A DNA stretch of 57,337 nt, from IMG/VR virus record IMGVR_UViG_3300042402_000779, positions 1 to 57,337 of that record, one strand, 5' to 3'. Source of the DNA: a virus. Its lineage: Duplodnaviria > Caudoviricetes. The position numbers and the translations under genes were made by a program. Of this stretch, positions 46,201 to 51,409 are shown one piece after another; positions within the stretch are counted from its first letter, which is position 1; each line of letters begins with the position of its first letter. Below the pieces are notes generated by a model, which had not been told where the DNA came from, searched no databases, and worked only from the letters and a program-made list of their open reading frames with translations.

Positions 46201-47772
46201 ATGAAAAAGTTAAAAGACTTATTAAAAGAATCTCAAGAATTAGATTACCGCAGAATGAATGTTGGTGAAGAAGATGCTCAAGGAATGACCAAAGAAGAAA
46301 AACGTGCATTCGTTGAAGCCGTTGCTGCATATCGTCAATTAGGTGAGATGATTTCTCACAAAGGTAATCTTGCTGAAATTCACGATTCAATCAAAGGGAT
46401 TGTTGAAAACGCAAATTCAATTACTTTAAAAGAAACTGGTGATTGGTTTGATAGAGTAACTGTTCAGAGACACATGAAATCTATGAATGAATCATTCAAG
46501 GTTTTCTCAAACACAATCAAAGAGGTTTCTACTTTACAACAACGAATGGAATCTGCTTATGATGAGATTGGTGAAGTTCTTGGTAAATACTATGAAATCA
46601 AAGAAGGTAACGAGTTTGGTGCCGAAAGAGCAAAAGCTATTGCTGCTGGCGAAGATTCGTTTGAGGTTGATGGTAAGTCATTCAAAGTGACTGGTGTTGA
46701 TGATGAAGACAAAAAGAACGCTGAAGAGTTTGCTAATGAGTCTATGAAGTTGACTTCTTTATTGAAGAAAGAAGAACTTAAAGGTAACCAAGACAAAATT
46801 GATTTTGACGATGATGGTGAAATTGAAGCATCTGACTTGGCTGCGTTAAGAGCCGGTAAGAAAAAAGATGAATCAGTAAACGAAGGTAAGAAAAGATTCA
46901 AAACTGGATATGGTATTGGTAAAGCTAAATATGTAATCTCTCACCACAATGGTGTTGATAAACATGATGATGGTAGTGATTTCTATGGTATCTCAATCTA
47001 TAATAACCAAAAAGATTTTGAAAAAGGAAAGCAAGATTTTTTATCAAAAGGATATGTTGCCGAATCAGTAAACGAGGCATTTAGTGATAATAAAAACCTT
47101 AACTACATAATGAAGGGTAGAAAAGTTACAAATGTGGCGTATGATAGTGATTTTGGATTTGCTGTTATTTTGGATAATGGTAAATATGTTCTATTTAATA
47201 CACATAGTGCTAGACCAGGTCAGTCAAAAGATATGGAATTTGAATCAGTAAACGAAGGATTATCACCAGAGATTGCAAAACACATGAGTTCTATTCATAA
47301 AGGATTTGTTTCGGTAACCATGGATGGTGTAATGGTTTATGAAACCCCAGCTGCTGCTAAAAAAGCTTCTGACTTCTTAAATTCAAAACAAATCGCAGCT
47401 ACAGCCAATGGTAAAACATTATATATCGAATCAGTAGTAAAAAAATCTAATATTAACGAAGTATCAGCTGCCACACTCTTAAAGTCAGTTGCTAAAGGTG
47501 AATCTTCTCGTGTTCAAGGTGTGAAGATATCAAAAGCAATGGCTGAACACTTTTTGTTTTGGTTGCGTACATCTCCTTATGGTAAAAAGTATGATTCATT
47601 ACCATTCCATATGTTGTTTACTGCTGCTTTCAATTGGGGACTTCATAGATACATGGACCCTGCTTTGAAAGGTGAATATGAAACATTGAAAAAAGTTGCT
47701 ATTGAAATGGAAAAGAAACGCCGTGAGATGAAAAAACAAATGGCTAATAGCATCGCTCCCAAAAGAAAGTAA
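46201..47772 (+). CDS. putative head-internal mosaic polyprotein
   Basis: MKKLKDLLKE leader, internal MKLTSLLKKEE, EF-hand-like loop and three ESVNE junctions. Confidence 0.65.
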   Translation: MKKLKDLLKESQELDYRRMNVGEEDAQGMTKEEKRAFVEAVAAYRQLGEMISHKGNLAEIHDSIKGIVENANSITLKETGDWFDRVTVQRHMKSMNESFKVFSNTIKEVSTLQQRMESAYDEIGEVLGKYYEIKEGNEFGAERAKAIAAGEDSFEVDGKSFKVTGVDDEDKKNAEEFANESMKLTSLLKKEELKGNQDKIDFDDDGEIEASDLAALRAGKKKDESVNEGKKRFKTGYGIGKAKYVISHHNGVDKHDDGSDFYGISIYNNQKDFEKGKQDFLSKGYVAESVNEAFSDNKNLNYIMKGRKVTNVAYDSDFGFAVILDNGKYVLFNTHSARPGQSKDMEFESVNEGLSPEIAKHMSSIHKGFVSVTMDGVMVYETPAAAKKASDFLNSKQIAATANGKTLYIESVVKKSNINEVSAATLLKSVAKGESSRVQGVKISKAMAEHFLFWLRTSPYGKKYDSLPFHMLFTAAFNWGLHRYMDPALKGEYETLKKVAIEMEKKRREMKKQMANSIAPKRK

Positions 47773-47776
47773 TAAA

Positions 47777-48175
47777 ATGAGTAATACCGACATACTACAA
47801 CAATTATCATTGGATTTTTCAAAGTTTATAAAAAACAATCTATCTGATATTAAAAAGTTAAGTCCTCAACAACAAAAACACATTGGTGGGTTGTTCATGG
47901 ATTTTAAAGATGGATTGGATTCTATAAGTGAAAATACCGATTCAGTAAACGAAGCATATTGGGACCAAAAACGAAACGATACTGTTAGAAAAACTATGCC
48001 AGGATATGTTGGAGTTAAATTTGCTAAAGTTGCTTCTGAAGAAGATTTGGATTTGATGATTCGTTTAAAACAAGCAAATTCAGAACACGCTAACGCAATG
48101 TTACCAAATATAAAGTCAATGGACTACTTGTACAAAAAATACAAAATCAGTTCCAAAAAAGGTATTGAACAATAA
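47777..48175 (+). CDS. putative head-internal two-module protein
   Basis: Two segments joined at ISENTDSVNE. Confidence 0.55.
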   Translation: MSNTDILQQLSLDFSKFIKNNLSDIKKLSPQQQKHIGGLFMDFKDGLDSISENTDSVNEAYWDQKRNDTVRKTMPGYVGVKFAKVASEEDLDLMIRLKQANSEHANAMLPNIKSMDYLYKKYKISSKKGIEQ

Positions 48176-48203
48176 ACAATTGATTTTATAAAAAAGATTT
48201 TCA

Positions 48204-48210
48204 TATTTAT
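48204..48210 (+). promoter_or_regulatory. candidate late promoter TATTTAT upstream of bS21
   Basis: Intergenic, abutting the hairpin at 48211. Confidence 0.55.
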
Positions 48211-48247
48211 ATACACCTATCAGTAACATGGTAGGTGTATTTTTTTT
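48211..48247 (+). terminator. intrinsic terminator/attenuator hairpin upstream of bS21
   Basis: ATACACCTATCA-GTAACA-TGGTAGGTGTAT (12-bp stem, one G:U) followed by T7. Confidence 0.75.
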
Positions 48248-48258
48248 AACAAGAATTT

Positions 48259-48519
48259 ATGAATAGAAAAAACGACAATTTTAAAAAGAAGAAAAAGGGC
48301 CGTAAGGATGATATGTTCATGTACGGAAACGCCCTTGGTGTGAAAGTAGTGGATGGTAACTTGGAAGCTGCCATTCGGTTATTAAAACGAACTGTTAAAG
48401 ATAGTGGTATGATGGATATCTTACGAGATAAGAAAGAATACACTAAACCAACAACACTTCGTAGAAAACAAAAAGAAGATGCTCAACGCAGAGAGTATAT
48501 TCGAAGAATAAACGAATAA
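48259..48519 (+). CDS. rpsU: phage-encoded ribosomal protein bS21
   Basis: VKVVDGNLEAAIRLLKR...G...LR....YTKPT..RR matches the bS21 pattern; position in the head cluster is typical of phage bS21 genes. Confidence 0.85.
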   Translation: MNRKNDNFKKKKKGRKDDMFMYGNALGVKVVDGNLEAAIRLLKRTVKDSGMMDILRDKKEYTKPTTLRRKQKEDAQRREYIRRINE

Positions 48520-48557
48520 TAATGGTAAACACTTTATCGTTTCAGAAAAAGTAACCC

Positions 48558-48564
48558 TATTTAT
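48558..48564 (+). promoter_or_regulatory. candidate late promoter TATTTAT for the scaffold-capsid operon
   Basis: Intergenic; followed by a structured ~105-nt leader. Confidence 0.6.
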
Positions 48565-48573
48565 TTTAAAAAT

Positions 48574-48639
48574 ATCACTCCCCAATGAGTGATTACTATT
48601 ATTTGAAAAAATATTCAATTAAGATTCTCAATAATCTTA
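48574..48639 (+). promoter_or_regulatory. three-hairpin structured 5' leader
   Basis: ATCACTC-CCCAAT-GAGTGAT, TTGAA-AAAATA-TTCAA and TAAGATT-CTCAAT-AATCTTA. Confidence 0.55.
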
Positions 48640-48672
48640 TTATCCAAAAAGCTTAATTTAGGAGAAAAACAA

Positions 48673-49644
48673 ATGAAATCAGATTTGTTAAAAGAAGCTA
48701 TCGCTGATGCCAAAGCCGTTAAGGAAACTGCATTAGCTAACGCTAAAATGGCTCTTGAAGAAGCATTTACTCCAAAACTACAATCTATGTTGTCTCATAA
48801 GATTGCTGAAGAGTTGGAAGAGGAAGACGAAGAAGAAGTTGCTGACGAAATGGACGCTGCTGCTACTATGGACGAACCTGCTGAAGACGAAATGGCTACT
48901 GAAGAAGACGAAATGGGTGTTGAAGAAGAAGAGGAAATGTATTCTGAAGAGGGTGAAGAAGACATGACAATGGACATGGATTCTGAAGAAGATGGTGAAG
49001 AGTACGATGTTACTGGCGACGAGGAAGAAGAGACTGAAGAAGACGATTTAGACCTCGAAGCTGTAATCAGAGAACTTGAAGACGCTATGGCCGGTGAAGA
49101 AGAAGTTTCTGAAGAAGATGAAATGGGTGAAGAACCTGTTGCTGAAGAAGAAATGGAAGACGAGCCCGTTGCTGAGGAAGAAGAACTTGATATCAATGAA
49201 ATTATCAGAGCCTTGAAAGAAATGGATGGCGAAGAAGAGACTGTTGAAGAAGAGGAAACTCAAGAATCATGGAACGAGGAAAAAGAAGAAGAATTGGCTG
49301 AAGCTTACAACGTTATCACTTCTTTGAAGAAAACCATTAACGAGGTGAATCTTTTGAACGCTAAATTGTTATACACTAACAAATTGTTCAGAACATTCGA
49401 CTTGAACGAAAATCAAAAGATGAAAGTTATCGAGAACTTCGATAGAGCTGCATCTTTGAGAGAAGTTAAATTAGTTTACGCTACATTGGGTGAAAACTTA
49501 AATGTTGCAAGAAAAAACAAAACTGTTGTAAAAGAATCACTTGCTTCTAAACCTATGAAGTCATCTGCTCCTAAAAAAGAAATTCTTTCTGAAGGTGCTG
49601 CTGTTGCTGAAAGATTTAAGAAGTTAGCTGGTTTAAACAAATAA
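48673..49644 (+). CDS. prohead scaffold protein (T4 gp22-like role)
   Basis: Extremely acidic coiled-coil protein directly upstream of the capsid gene; ends in RFKKLAGL. Confidence 0.75.
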   Translation: MKSDLLKEAIADAKAVKETALANAKMALEEAFTPKLQSMLSHKIAEELEEEDEEEVADEMDAAATMDEPAEDEMATEEDEMGVEEEEEMYSEEGEEDMTMDMDSEEDGEEYDVTGDEEEETEEDDLDLEAVIRELEDAMAGEEEVSEEDEMGEEPVAEEEMEDEPVAEEEELDINEIIRALKEMDGEEETVEEEETQESWNEEKEEELAEAYNVITSLKKTINEVNLLNAKLLYTNKLFRTFDLNENQKMKVIENFDRAASLREVKLVYATLGENLNVARKNKTVVKESLASKPMKSSAPKKEILSEGAAVAERFKKLAGLNK

Positions 49645-49675
49645 TTTAAAACCAAAAGAAAAAAGGAAAAATAAG

Positions 49676-51310
49676 ATGAAAATCAATAACATTTTGAATG
49701 AATCTGCTGGTTTCAACAAAAGAATGACCGAAGAGACTAAAGGTATCGTAGCTAAATGGGCTAAGACCGGTCTTTTGGAAGGTATCAAGTCTGACTTCGA
49801 AAGAAGTGGCATGGCTACTTTGTTGGAAAACCAAGCAAAACAATTGGTATCTGAAGCTTCAAGCACAGGTACTTCTGCTAACTCTGAAGAATGGGCTGGT
49901 GTAGCTCTTCCTTTAGTAAGACGTATTTTCTCTGAAATCGCTGCTAAAGAATTCGTTAGTGTACAACCTATGAACTTACCATCAGGTCTTGTATTCTATT
50001 TGGATTTCAAATATGGTACAGGTCAACCTGGTTTCACTACCGGTTCTGGTAAAGATTCACAAGCTGACTCTGTATTCGGTATCACCGAAACTGGTTCTGC
50101 TGCTGTTGGTGGTCTTTATGGTGCTGGTCGTTTCGGTTACACTATCAACGAAGCTAGTGCACAACTGAATAAAGCTGCTAACTTGACTACTGCTGCTAAC
50201 TTTATCACTGGTTCTGTAACTGATGCTGATATTGATTACGATACAGCGTTTTCTCAATCAGTATTGGTTGGCGCAACTGGTGTCATCAAGGTACAATATT
50301 CAGCATCTCGTGACTTGACTGATGTTGACCTTGAAGGTGTACGTGCGTTCCAACTTTACTCAACTTCATCTGCTATTGTTAACTACCCACAATTCACTAA
50401 AGTGAATGCTCAAGGTTTGGTAACAACTATCGTTAAAGTTGCTGACCCATTATCAATCAATGGTGTTAAATACCAAAAACAACCGACTGACATCACTCGT
50501 GGTGACTTCGAACAAACCACTTCAGGTTTCGCTGCAAACCCTGAAACTGACCTTGGTATTCCTGAATTAAACGTTGAGCTTCGTTCAGTTCCTATCGTTG
50601 CTAAGACTCGTAAGTTGAAAGCACAATGGACTCCTGAATTTGCTCAAGACTTGAACGCTTACCACTCAATTGACGCTGAAGCTGAATTGACTTCAATGTT
50701 GTCTGAATATGTATCTCAAGAAATCGATTTCGAAATCTTGGATATGTTGATGCAGAACGCATTGACTACAGGTTACTGGTCAGCTAAAGTTGGTTACGAG
50801 TGGAATGGTTCAGGTTTCGCACAATCAGCTGCTAACTACACTGCTTACATTCAAGGTACTTGGTTCGCTACATTGGGTACTGTACTTCAGAGAGTTTCTA
50901 ACCAAATCCATGCTAAAACCATGAGAGGTGGAGCTAACTTTATGGTAGTATCTCCTGATGTTGCTACAATCCTTGAGTCTATCCCAGGATATGCTGCTAA
51001 TGGAACTGGTGCTGAAATGTCATTCGCTATGGGTGTATCACAAGTAGGTTCGTTCGCTAACCGCTACACTGTGTACAAAAACCCTTACATGACTACTAAC
51101 CAAATCTTGTTAGGTTTCAAAGGTGCTCAATTCTTGGAAACTGGTGCTGTATACGCTCCTTACATTCCATTAATCATGACTCCTTTGGTGTATGACCCGA
51201 AAAACTTCCAACCTCGTAAGGGTGTTATGACTCGTTACGCGAAGGAAATGATTCGTGGTGAGTTCTATGGTAAGGTATACGTTCATGGTCTTGAGACTTT
51301 GGGCGCCTAA
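49676..51310 (+). CDS. major capsid protein (T4 gp23-like)
   Basis: LLENQ, LPLVRR, VQPMNLPSGLVF, AKTRKLKAQWTPEFAQDLNAYH, YAPYIPL, GVMTRY. Confidence 0.96.
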   Translation: MKINNILNESAGFNKRMTEETKGIVAKWAKTGLLEGIKSDFERSGMATLLENQAKQLVSEASSTGTSANSEEWAGVALPLVRRIFSEIAAKEFVSVQPMNLPSGLVFYLDFKYGTGQPGFTTGSGKDSQADSVFGITETGSAAVGGLYGAGRFGYTINEASAQLNKAANLTTAANFITGSVTDADIDYDTAFSQSVLVGATGVIKVQYSASRDLTDVDLEGVRAFQLYSTSSAIVNYPQFTKVNAQGLVTTIVKVADPLSINGVKYQKQPTDITRGDFEQTTSGFAANPETDLGIPELNVELRSVPIVAKTRKLKAQWTPEFAQDLNAYHSIDAEAELTSMLSEYVSQEIDFEILDMLMQNALTTGYWSAKVGYEWNGSGFAQSAANYTAYIQGTWFATLGTVLQRVSNQIHAKTMRGGANFMVVSPDVATILESIPGYAANGTGAEMSFAMGVSQVGSFANRYTVYKNPYMTTNQILLGFKGAQFLETGAVYAPYIPLIMTPLVYDPKNFQPRKGVMTRYAKEMIRGEFYGKVYVHGLETLGA

Positions 51311-51335
51311 TCATTAGGATAACTGATTTTTGAAG

Positions 51336-51366
51336 AAGGGGGTCGATTTCGACCCCCTTTTTTATT
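51336..51366 (+). terminator. intrinsic terminator after the capsid gene
   Basis: AAGGGGGTCG-ATTT-CGACCCCCTT followed by a T-run. Confidence 0.9.
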
Positions 51367-51376
51367 GCCATAGGGA

Positions 51377-51383
51377 TATTTAT
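51377..51383 (+). promoter_or_regulatory. candidate late promoter TATTTAT upstream of phoH
   Basis: Immediately downstream of the capsid terminator. Confidence 0.6.
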
Positions 51384-51409
51384 TCTTATAAAAGAAGGTT
51401 TACGAAAAT

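Follow-up and report, generated by a model that had tools for sequence, protein, structure and literature searches.

A basic-tailed phage bS21 with arginine at the Tyr54 position is encoded among Shine-Dalgarno-led late genes of a lake phage

Results

The bS21 gene and its product

The window analysed here is a stretch of 57,337 bases from IMG/VR virus record IMGVR_UViG_3300042402_000779 (CheckV completeness approximately 32%), and the gene in question is an 86-codon open reading frame (ORF) in its T4-type head module (Table 1). The protein begins MNRKNDNFKKKKKGRK and contains KPTTLRRKQKEDAQRREY. Its identification as a phage bS21, made in the original prediction, was borne out: Pfam Ribosomal_S21 (PF01165) matched residues 28-79, corresponding to profile positions 2-54 of 55, with 47.3 bits against a cut-off of 27 (E 1.7e-12), and PHROG 21469, 'ribosomal protein S21', matched with E 2.8e-6. 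The ORF specifies a phage paralogue of ribosomal protein bS21 at full length, with the ATG at 48259 as its translation start. The AlphaFold2 (AF2) model, with a mean predicted local distance difference test score (pLDDT) of 82, has helices at residues 35-49, 51-59 and 64-85. The last is continuous with pLDDT above 90 (block means 92-96 over residues 61-86), and the KP(S/T) hinge typical of the bS21 fold precedes it as K63-P64-T65. A Foldseek comparison of the model with the PDB returned nothing significant (best E 6.9, which has no bearing on residue equivalence), so the fold assignment rests on the AF2 model and the sequence profile. The best solved-structure matches by phmmer were the bS21 proteins of two bacteria, one of them Staphylococcus aureus, and of mitochondria (E 2e-5 to 4e-4), while Flavobacterium johnsoniae bS21 matched with E 0.21. 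The homologue search gave four close relatives.

The Pfam core is preceded by an extension of approximately 26 residues. The original prediction had described a Lys-rich extension of about 20 basic residues; the extension is real and conserved, but K or R occupies nine of its first 18 positions. It was present, with the pattern [FY]KK[VI]R[RK]EDM.IPG, in each of the 33 distinct clade proteins, and wider relatives from a library of 1.84 billion proteins had a basic extension followed by D/E-[FYM]-x-[IL]-P-G. The three closest relatives (L002-L004), whose cores are 96% identical to that of the window, begin at the same ATG; in the extension they are set apart from it by an in-frame 18-nt indel and by several substitutions, none of which creates a stop. 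Retention in all 33 clade members, together with the frame-preserving indel in the closest relatives, indicates that the extension is part of the protein and conserved at the protein level. The AF2 pLDDT was 54-70 over residues 1-20, with low confidence for residues 1-15, for which reason the N-terminal part is probably disordered in the free protein.

The extension also contains the TAAGGA and the two in-frame ATGs that the original prediction had listed; these, like the ORF, were found where it placed them. From them it had proposed a shorter protein, starting at Met19 or Met21 behind a Shine-Dalgarno (SD) site and made once the anti-SD of 16S rRNA is free, giving positive feedback. The spacing of TAAGGA, 4 and 10 nt before the two ATGs, would suit such a start, and Met19 is almost invariant within the clade. 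However, L002-L004 read TAAAGA, a synonymous and lineage-specific change in a Lys codon (AAG to AAA), and an SD core, defined throughout as AGGA, GGAG or GAGG within -18 to -5 of a start, preceded the equivalent Met in only one of 33 distinct relatives. In the wider relatives the equivalent residue is Phe, Tyr, Leu or another, so it does not serve as a start there and the Met looks like a protein residue rather than a start signal; the [FY]KK[VI]R[RK]ED segment upstream of it is also conserved as protein. On this evidence the short isoform and its feedback loop are very improbable.

Table 1. Features in and around the bS21 gene of the window
Feature	Position	Strand	Basis or remark
TATTTATA, candidate late-promoter motif of the bS21 gene	48204..48211	+	inferred
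12-bp hairpin (48211-48240), then T8 run (48240-48247), intrinsic-terminator-like	48211..48247	+	terminator-like call, directly upstream of bS21
bS21 coding sequence, 86 aa, no SD before start	48259..48519	+	ORF translation and Pfam match
N-terminal extension, residues 1-26: basic tail, then D-M-x-x-x-G motif	48259..48336	+	clade conservation
TAAGGA (48303-48308) and in-frame ATGs at 48313 (Met19) and 48319 (Met21)	48303..48321	+	not a conserved start site
CGC codon of Arg77 (F. johnsoniae Tyr54 position)	48487..48489	+	KP count, MAFFT, hhalign
Codons of Tyr80-Ile81; Tyr80 is the clade-conserved aromatic (Tyr/Trp) at KP+17	48496..48501	+	clade alignments
Second terminator-like hairpin, downstream of bS21	48574..48593	+	terminator-like call
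AGGAG, 8 nt before the ATG of the acidic scaffold-like gene	48660..48664	+	
Acidic scaffold-like ORF	48673-49644	+	downstream of bS21
AGGA, 8 nt before the ATG of the Gp23-type major capsid gene	49664..49667	+	
Gp23-type major capsid gene	49676-51310	+	Pfam E 9e-77

Arginine at the Tyr54 position

In F. johnsoniae bS21, Tyr54 stacks on A1534 of 16S rRNA; the residue is a hallmark of the phylum (Jha et al. 2020, PMC7797042). Counted from the Lys-Pro (KP) motif, K40-P41...A52-A53-Y54-I55 of the F. johnsoniae chain (7jil_z) corresponds to K63-P64...A75-Q76-R77-R78-E79-Y80-I81 of the window protein, which puts Tyr54 at Arg77 (KP+14), with Tyr80 three residues later (KP+17). This is the register that the original prediction had proposed, and it was upheld at the family level. 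A MAFFT alignment of 47 sequences had zero gaps from KP to the helix end, and its Arg77 column also held Tyr53 of relative P0141, the equivalent of Tyr54 in alignment with 7jil_z. The hhalign comparison of the clade profile (A8, 23 sequences) with 22 Bacteroidia bS21 proteins (A7) produced a single ungapped block, 31-83 on 8-60, with a probability of 98.2%. Four clade loci (L066-L069) carry Tyr at KP+14 together with Trp at KP+17, so these are two separate positions. Two pairwise methods, BLASTP against the bS21 of a Flavobacterium metagenome-assembled genome (MAG) and the phmmer match to F. johnsoniae, gave the contrary register by opening a three-residue gap that aligned Y80-I81 with Y54-I55, an outcome that the original prediction had named as one that would refute it; the family-level alignments decide for Arg77.

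Arg77 was invariant in the 23 sequences of the clade alignment. Among 53 IMG/VR clade loci, KP+14 was R in 49 and Y in four, and KP+17 was W or Y in 51. In a Bacteroidia sample drawn from the class of a Flavobacterium MAG, where four of 30 loci gave no ORF under the search pattern, 25 of 26 bS21 ORFs had Tyr at KP+14 and none had an aromatic residue at KP+17. The phmmer alignments placed K and F at these two positions in S. aureus bS21, and R and Y in human bS21m. As R/K at KP+14 with an aromatic at KP+17 is common to these two, the phage protein looks at both positions like the generic rather than the Bacteroidia type. Counted by eye, the 22 residues after KP include eight K/R and four D/E, versus four K/R and two D/E in 23 residues of the Flavobacterium MAG protein. 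The phage gene lacks three features of the Bacteroidia type, namely Tyr54, a C-terminal part markedly less basic than that of other phyla, and the strong SD before the gene that is tied to autoregulation in Flavobacteriales. The Tyr-type bS21 queries P0030 and P0021 matched no viral loci. Taken together, the alignments show a distinct bS21 clade, marked by the basic tail at the N terminus, by Arg in place of the Bacteroidia Tyr54 and by a conserved Tyr or Trp three residues on. In one of the sampled Bacteroidia genomes, the sole bS21 match (L122 in G043, ORF 1477-1668 on the minus strand) is a 64-aa protein with no N-terminal tail that also has Arg at the Tyr54 position (...NRAIRRQELY).

SD sites in the window and in related genomes

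An SD core preceded 17 of 47 starts in the window, against 2.4 ± 1.5 at random positions. These starts were that of bS21 and those of 46 plus-strand ORFs of at least 100 aa; the 47th such ORF (38955), which overlaps, and eight nested minus-strand ORFs were excluded. Approximately 40% of the neighbours of bS21 are SD-led, whereas the bS21 gene is SD-less: there is no SD core at 48259, nor before the first ATG of any of the 33 distinct clade genes.

Outside the window, starts were called naively as the first ATG of ORFs of at least 60 aa, except where annotated starts are given. Flavobacterium phage immuto, which has no bS21, carried SD cores at two of 46 annotated starts (6.9 expected) and at eight of 210 naive calls (31 expected), and Microcystis phage Mel-JY01 at 21 of 36 annotated starts. 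In G001, a near-complete relative (186.6 kb, 98% complete), the 44 SD-led genes of 214 were clustered, with 19 of 41 in the structural part at 130-186 kb, 3 of 61 at 20-70 kb and 4 of 67 at 90-130 kb. The SD-poor zones include genes inside operons.

We compared genes lying at most 150 nt downstream of a host-type promoter (TTG-N17-21-TAnnTTTG) with genes behind the putative late motif (TATTTAT[AT]; both described below). The ratios of genes without to genes with SD were 17:1 behind the host-type promoter and 15:18 behind the late motif in G001 (P = 0.0006), 12:1 and 15:14 in G044 (P = 0.015), and 11:0 and 11:13 in G046 (P = 0.002); four other bS21 genomes had too few host-type promoter sites for this comparison. 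The SD fraction also tracked late-motif density per 10-kb bin in five of seven IMG/VR bS21 genomes (rho 0.61-0.73).

SD use and the presence of bS21

The best 80 of 582 capsid relatives were kept, and the 53 with at least 4.5 kb upstream of the capsid gene were used, 27 being dropped. In the 41 head regions with bS21, 320 of 741 genes were SD-led and 33 of the 41 capsid genes had an SD; in the 12 without bS21 the corresponding counts were 25 of 203 and one of 12. The SD-led share differed between the two groups (P = 5e-6, Mann-Whitney), with naive start calls and loci that are not phylogenetically independent, some being near-duplicates. Using one locus per distinct bS21 protein left 284 SD-led genes of 663. 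The seven bS21-less loci with a GC content of at most 0.36 had SD cores at 5 of 122 genes. In a quick capsid tree with SH-aLRT (approximate likelihood ratio test) support only, bS21-less lineages appeared at four or five places, and one of them (3 of 64 genes SD-led) was nested in a bS21-bearing, SD-rich clade.

The residue at KP+14 did not separate the loci in the same way. Genes were SD-led in 120 of 273 cases at loci with Tyr, His or Phe there versus 200 of 468 at loci with Arg or Lys, and the capsid gene had an SD in 8 of 14 versus 25 of 27. A rule that loci with the Tyr have no SD sites failed, as L066-L069 and the 14 Tyr/His/Phe-type loci were SD-rich like the Arg/Lys type. Arg77 is therefore not the discriminating feature and loss of the Tyr alone is no explanation, which weakens the consequence implied in the original prediction, that this loss frees the anti-SD. 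It is the carriage of any phage bS21, and not specifically the change from Tyr to Arg, that is linked with SD use. As the genomic pattern is no different for Tyr-type phage proteins, we infer that either every phage bS21 acts through another shared feature or the SD sites are served in some other way. A candidate for the shared feature is the N-terminal addition, present in all phage bS21 proteins examined.

The bS21 unit and its surroundings

TATTTAT[AT] lies 26-63 nt ahead of many late gene starts in the window, and in the late zone of G001 TATTTAT occurs in 15 of 22 upstream regions. We read the motif as the putative late promoter, in analogy to that of T4. Upstream of bS21 it is joined to a hairpin. 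Across 24 distinct relatives the motif and the outer stem were nearly invariant, and the inner stem and loop variable; 96.5% of alignment cells were paired, five pairs had compensatory changes, and only 1-2 of 500 shuffles matched this. The hairpin folds with -17.1 kcal/mol (z -4.2). The element was found at one place only in the 186.6 kb of G001, just upstream of bS21, where being palindromic it is listed on both strands. Lying between the promoter-like motif with its hairpin and the second hairpin, bS21 forms its own small unit within the late head module. The arms of the hairpin (48211-48238) resemble an anti-SD/SD pair, with ACACCU on the 5' side (compare ...UCACCU... in 16S rRNA) and AGGUGU on the 3' side, the SD-like arm lying 21 nt before the AUG, beyond the normal SD range; this may be chance or a regulatory mimic. 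Rfam searches of 47700-48800 gave nothing meaningful, with one long non-coding RNA match at E 0.58.

The head module was present in RNA-library contigs from four lake metatranscriptome runs, and two such contigs cover the bS21 ORF (X15, 48229-48522; X17, 48146-48463). These are Logan contigs, not reads, and so are no proof of transcription, 5' end, strand or level; the parts they leave uncovered carry no meaning.

All 47 non-nested long ORFs of the window, and bS21 with them, are on the plus strand; an opposite-strand position of bS21 relative to its neighbours, a trait of the phage bS21 clades of Chen et al. (2022), was looked for and not found. A 132-aa ORF lies upstream of bS21, and the Gp23-type capsid gene follows 1.2 kb downstream, with the scaffold-like gene between them. 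This position in the head gene block is shared by relative L005 and Mel-JY01, which have equal synteny. The best GenBank phage matches of the capsid protein were Mel-JY01 (58%), immuto (54%) and Rhodothermus phage RM378 (37%), and neither megablast of 6 kb nor tblastn of bS21 matched any of 50,697 GenBank phage records. GC content was 34-38% in 5-kb windows. No tRNA gene was found in a scan of the window; G001 has nine clustered tRNA genes (Met twice, Gln, Gly, Thr, Ser, Glu, Arg and Leu; original coordinates 66587-77395). At least 14 metagenome runs from lakes or fresh water contained DNA near-identical to window positions 47000-51400, and six metatranscriptome runs of different study codes contained parts of it; the phage is widespread in lakes.

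The host

There were 24 intergenic TTG-N17-21-TAnnTTTG sites in G001, many reading TTTGG-N19-TATATTTG and several just 10-14 nt before an ATG; we take this to be the -33/-7 promoter type of Bacteroidota. G001 shows, in its SD-poor zones, an upstream adenine peak at -13 to -11 like that of immuto; Mel-JY01 lacks it. Among representative genomes, clade bS21 genes turned up on two small contigs that had been binned with a Flavobacterium MAG; the rpsU of the MAG itself has Tyr54 and the SD AGGAGGTG. Given the promoter-type sites, the adenine peak, the 54% capsid match to immuto and these contigs, a Bacteroidota host for the clade is likely, though not certain.

Several further observations concern these genomes. 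Many early genes of G001 start 10-14 nt past the start of the TAnnTTTG box (for example, in reverse complement, 26379, 33042, 51654, 81195 and 120815), and the mRNAs would have no leader or almost none. When k-mers were counted without bias across the intergenic regions of G001, a GC-rich repeat region dominated and the early promoter was not recovered, whereas a count restricted to upstream regions was usable. G001 also has a repeated motif, ...CTTTACTCTGTAAT..., in approximately seven intergenic regions and a stretch rich in GC-rich hexamers (AGGTGC 80 times) that the gene caller left uncalled; these could be a middle promoter and a repeat-rich gene, respectively. The Flavobacterium MAG G003 has three further bS21 genes besides rpsU, on contigs C196, C197 and C207 (L107-L109; 1.6-2.2 kb), one encoding a 101-aa protein that ends in a long basic tail. 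The three contigs probably come from phages and were binned together with the host. Mel-JY01 (PP395634.1; L021-L030) has 19 intergenic TTG-N17-21-TAnnTTTG sites (cTTGCAT...TTTCG-TAnnTTTG); either this pattern is read by other sigma factors too, or its Microcystis host record needs a second look.

Discussion

The position of an SD-less bS21 gene among SD-led late genes suggests, but does not prove, that the phage retunes the ribosomes of its host. We propose, with slightly less than even confidence, that the basic-tailed, Arg77-bearing bS21 of a Bacteroidota-infecting phage shifts 30S subunits toward SD-bearing late mRNAs. The host would be a member of the Bacteroidota, whose ribosomes hide the anti-SD, and the SD-less bS21 mRNA would be read by ordinary host ribosomes. 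The phage protein would then occupy the bS21 position of 30S subunits with the aid of its basic tail, whose lysines could add affinity for rRNA. Its helix 3 appears more basic, with Arg in place of Tyr, as in two SD-using bacteria that have Lys there. With such a helix the 16S 3' tail would not be steered into the bS18/bS6 pocket and an SD-anti-SD helix would be tolerated, so that SD-bearing late mRNAs (capsid, scaffold, tail) would gain over SD-less host and early mRNAs.

Work on F. johnsoniae lends this some plausibility. There, Y54A or loss of helix 3 raises translation from strong SDs 3- to 5-fold (McNutt et al. 2023, PMC9976891), and loss of bS21 frees the 16S tail beyond A1534 (2026 structure paper, PMC13000457). 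The same paper reports that the SD-anti-SD helix clashes with helix 3 of F. johnsoniae bS21, whereas in other bacteria it passes between the two bS21 helices. Given these effects and this path, it is plausible that a generic, basic helix 3 with Arg fills the bS21 site and leaves the anti-SD usable. Taken further, and more tentatively, early genes without SDs would be translated by unmodified ribosomes until phage bS21 unmasks the anti-SD and opens an SD channel private to the virion genes. The form with Arg77 and the long Lys tail would be the one furthest from the host protein, and the promoter-hairpin element, with its ACACCU and AGGUGU arms, would time or dose its synthesis.

A number of observations weigh against the proposed shift of 30S subunits. 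Tyr/His/Phe-type loci use SDs as much as Arg/Lys-type loci do, and Tyr80 sits approximately one turn of the helix away from position 77, from where stacking on the 16S tail might still be possible. Mel-JY01, the closest cultured capsid relative, showed no early/late difference (8:8 versus 6:10, without to with SD), and the correlation of SD use with late-motif density was absent there and weak in G045 and G049 (rho 0.32 and 0.33, not significant). Mel-JY01 also carries the Bacteroidota-type promoter pattern with Microcystis as its recorded host. Five bS21-less loci with GC above 0.36 still had SD cores at 20 of 81 genes, and the non-independence of the loci and the naive start calls bear on the whole comparison.

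One alternative is that the phage protein mimics that of the host: the anti-SD would remain in its pocket, Tyr80 (in the clade, Tyr or Trp) would stack in place of Tyr54 one turn further on, and any preference for phage mRNAs would be due to helix 1, which has diverged, or to the basic tail, as proposed by Chen et al. (2022, PMC9723584) for their phages, late SDs being served otherwise, for example by bS21-free ribosomes. The aromatic residue at KP+17 in 51 of 53 clade loci is what this would require; Y80-I81 repeats Y54-I55 closely enough for pairwise aligners to superpose them, late genes are SD-rich also with Tyr-type phage bS21, and 61 of 61 phage bS21 proteins of Chen et al. (PMC9723584) are aromatic at position 54. 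However, the profile and multiple alignments are ungapped, L066-L069 hold Tyr and Trp at the two positions at once, so that KP+17 is a separate site, and none of the 26 sampled Bacteroidia ORFs is aromatic there. S. aureus and human mitochondrial bS21 are aromatic at KP+17 as well, and anti-SD masking is not known for either. A mimic would also leave unexplained why SD sites abound only where phage bS21 is present, and we consider it unlikely.

The other alternative is an ordinary SD-using host, in which Tyr54 would be irrelevant; phage bS21 would sustain SD initiation, or supply bS21 after host shut-off, and the late SDs would be strong because of high expression. The structure matches agree with this, since the two bacteria with Lys at KP+14 and the mitochondria (E 2e-5 to 4e-4) precede F. 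johnsoniae (E 0.21), as does the generic basic type of the C-terminal helix. Mel-JY01, recorded on Microcystis and sharing a 58% identical capsid protein and a syntenic bS21, has SD cores at 21 of 36 starts. Such a host sits poorly with the SD-poor zones of G001 (3 of 61 and 4 of 67, operon-internal genes included) and with the 40:2 ratio of genes without to genes with SD behind -33/-7 type promoters in three genomes. The adenine signature is like that of a Flavobacterium phage, clade contigs are binned with a Flavobacterium MAG, and the bS21-less relative immuto infects Flavobacterium and is depleted in SD cores (8 of 210 against 31 expected). We judge this reading improbable too.

Phage bS21 genes in head modules, expressed late and in phages of Bacteroidetes, are already known. 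Chen et al. (2022, PMC9723584) described freshwater myoviruses, large T4-like lake phages with a small bS21 in the head block (terminase, portal, protease, capsid), expressed with the late genes; they assigned Bacteroidetes hosts and proposed replacement of host bS21. At position 54, each of their 61 proteins has Tyr (54), His or Phe, unlike the Arg of the present clade, and the Tyr/His/Phe-type relatives found here look like their kind. The main text of that paper, supplementary alignments aside, contains no analysis of SD sites or of an N-terminal extension. More generally, the literature texts searched, supplements aside, contain no Arg-54 clade, no such N-terminal tail or hairpin unit upstream of the gene, and no such SD pattern, and no paper linking phage bS21 to SD-led late genes appeared among the listings and abstract openings searched.

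Other bS21 proteins share parts of this picture. That of F. johnsoniae (PDB 7JIL chain z; PMC7797042, PMC9976891) has the same fold family, the KP(S/T) hinge and the conserved Ala two before position 54, and is a late-binding platform protein beside the 16S 3' tail. This host protein differs in being 64 aa long with no N-terminal tail, with Tyr54 and a less basic helix 3 (four K/R after KP versus eight in the phage protein), and in having a strong SD before its gene (AGGAGGTG in the Flavobacterium MAG) where the phage gene has none. Mel-JY01 RpsU (PP395634.1) is syntenic, between the prohead protease and the scaffold and capsid genes, with SD-led head genes around it. It differs in its 75-aa length, short non-basic N-terminal piece and lack of any aromatic residue after KP, and its phage has SD cores on early and late genes alike and no conserved upstream hairpin. 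In Francisella tularensis, swapping bS21 paralogues alters the mRNA preference of the ribosome (PMC9578407), which is the kind of effect proposed here; those paralogues are cellular, in an SD-using gammaproteobacterium without anti-SD masking.

bS21 is the ribosomal protein most frequently carried by phages (McNutt et al. 2023, PMC9976891). With a natural Tyr54-to-Arg protein, a basic tail and an SD-less gene among SD-led late genes, the clade described here makes the role of phage bS21 directly testable in the existing F. johnsoniae reporter and cryo-EM system. If the phage protein does unmask the anti-SD, it would clearly exemplify how a virus can re-specify the recognition of start sites through the swap of one ribosomal protein, and it would provide a handle for switching on SD use in Bacteroidota.

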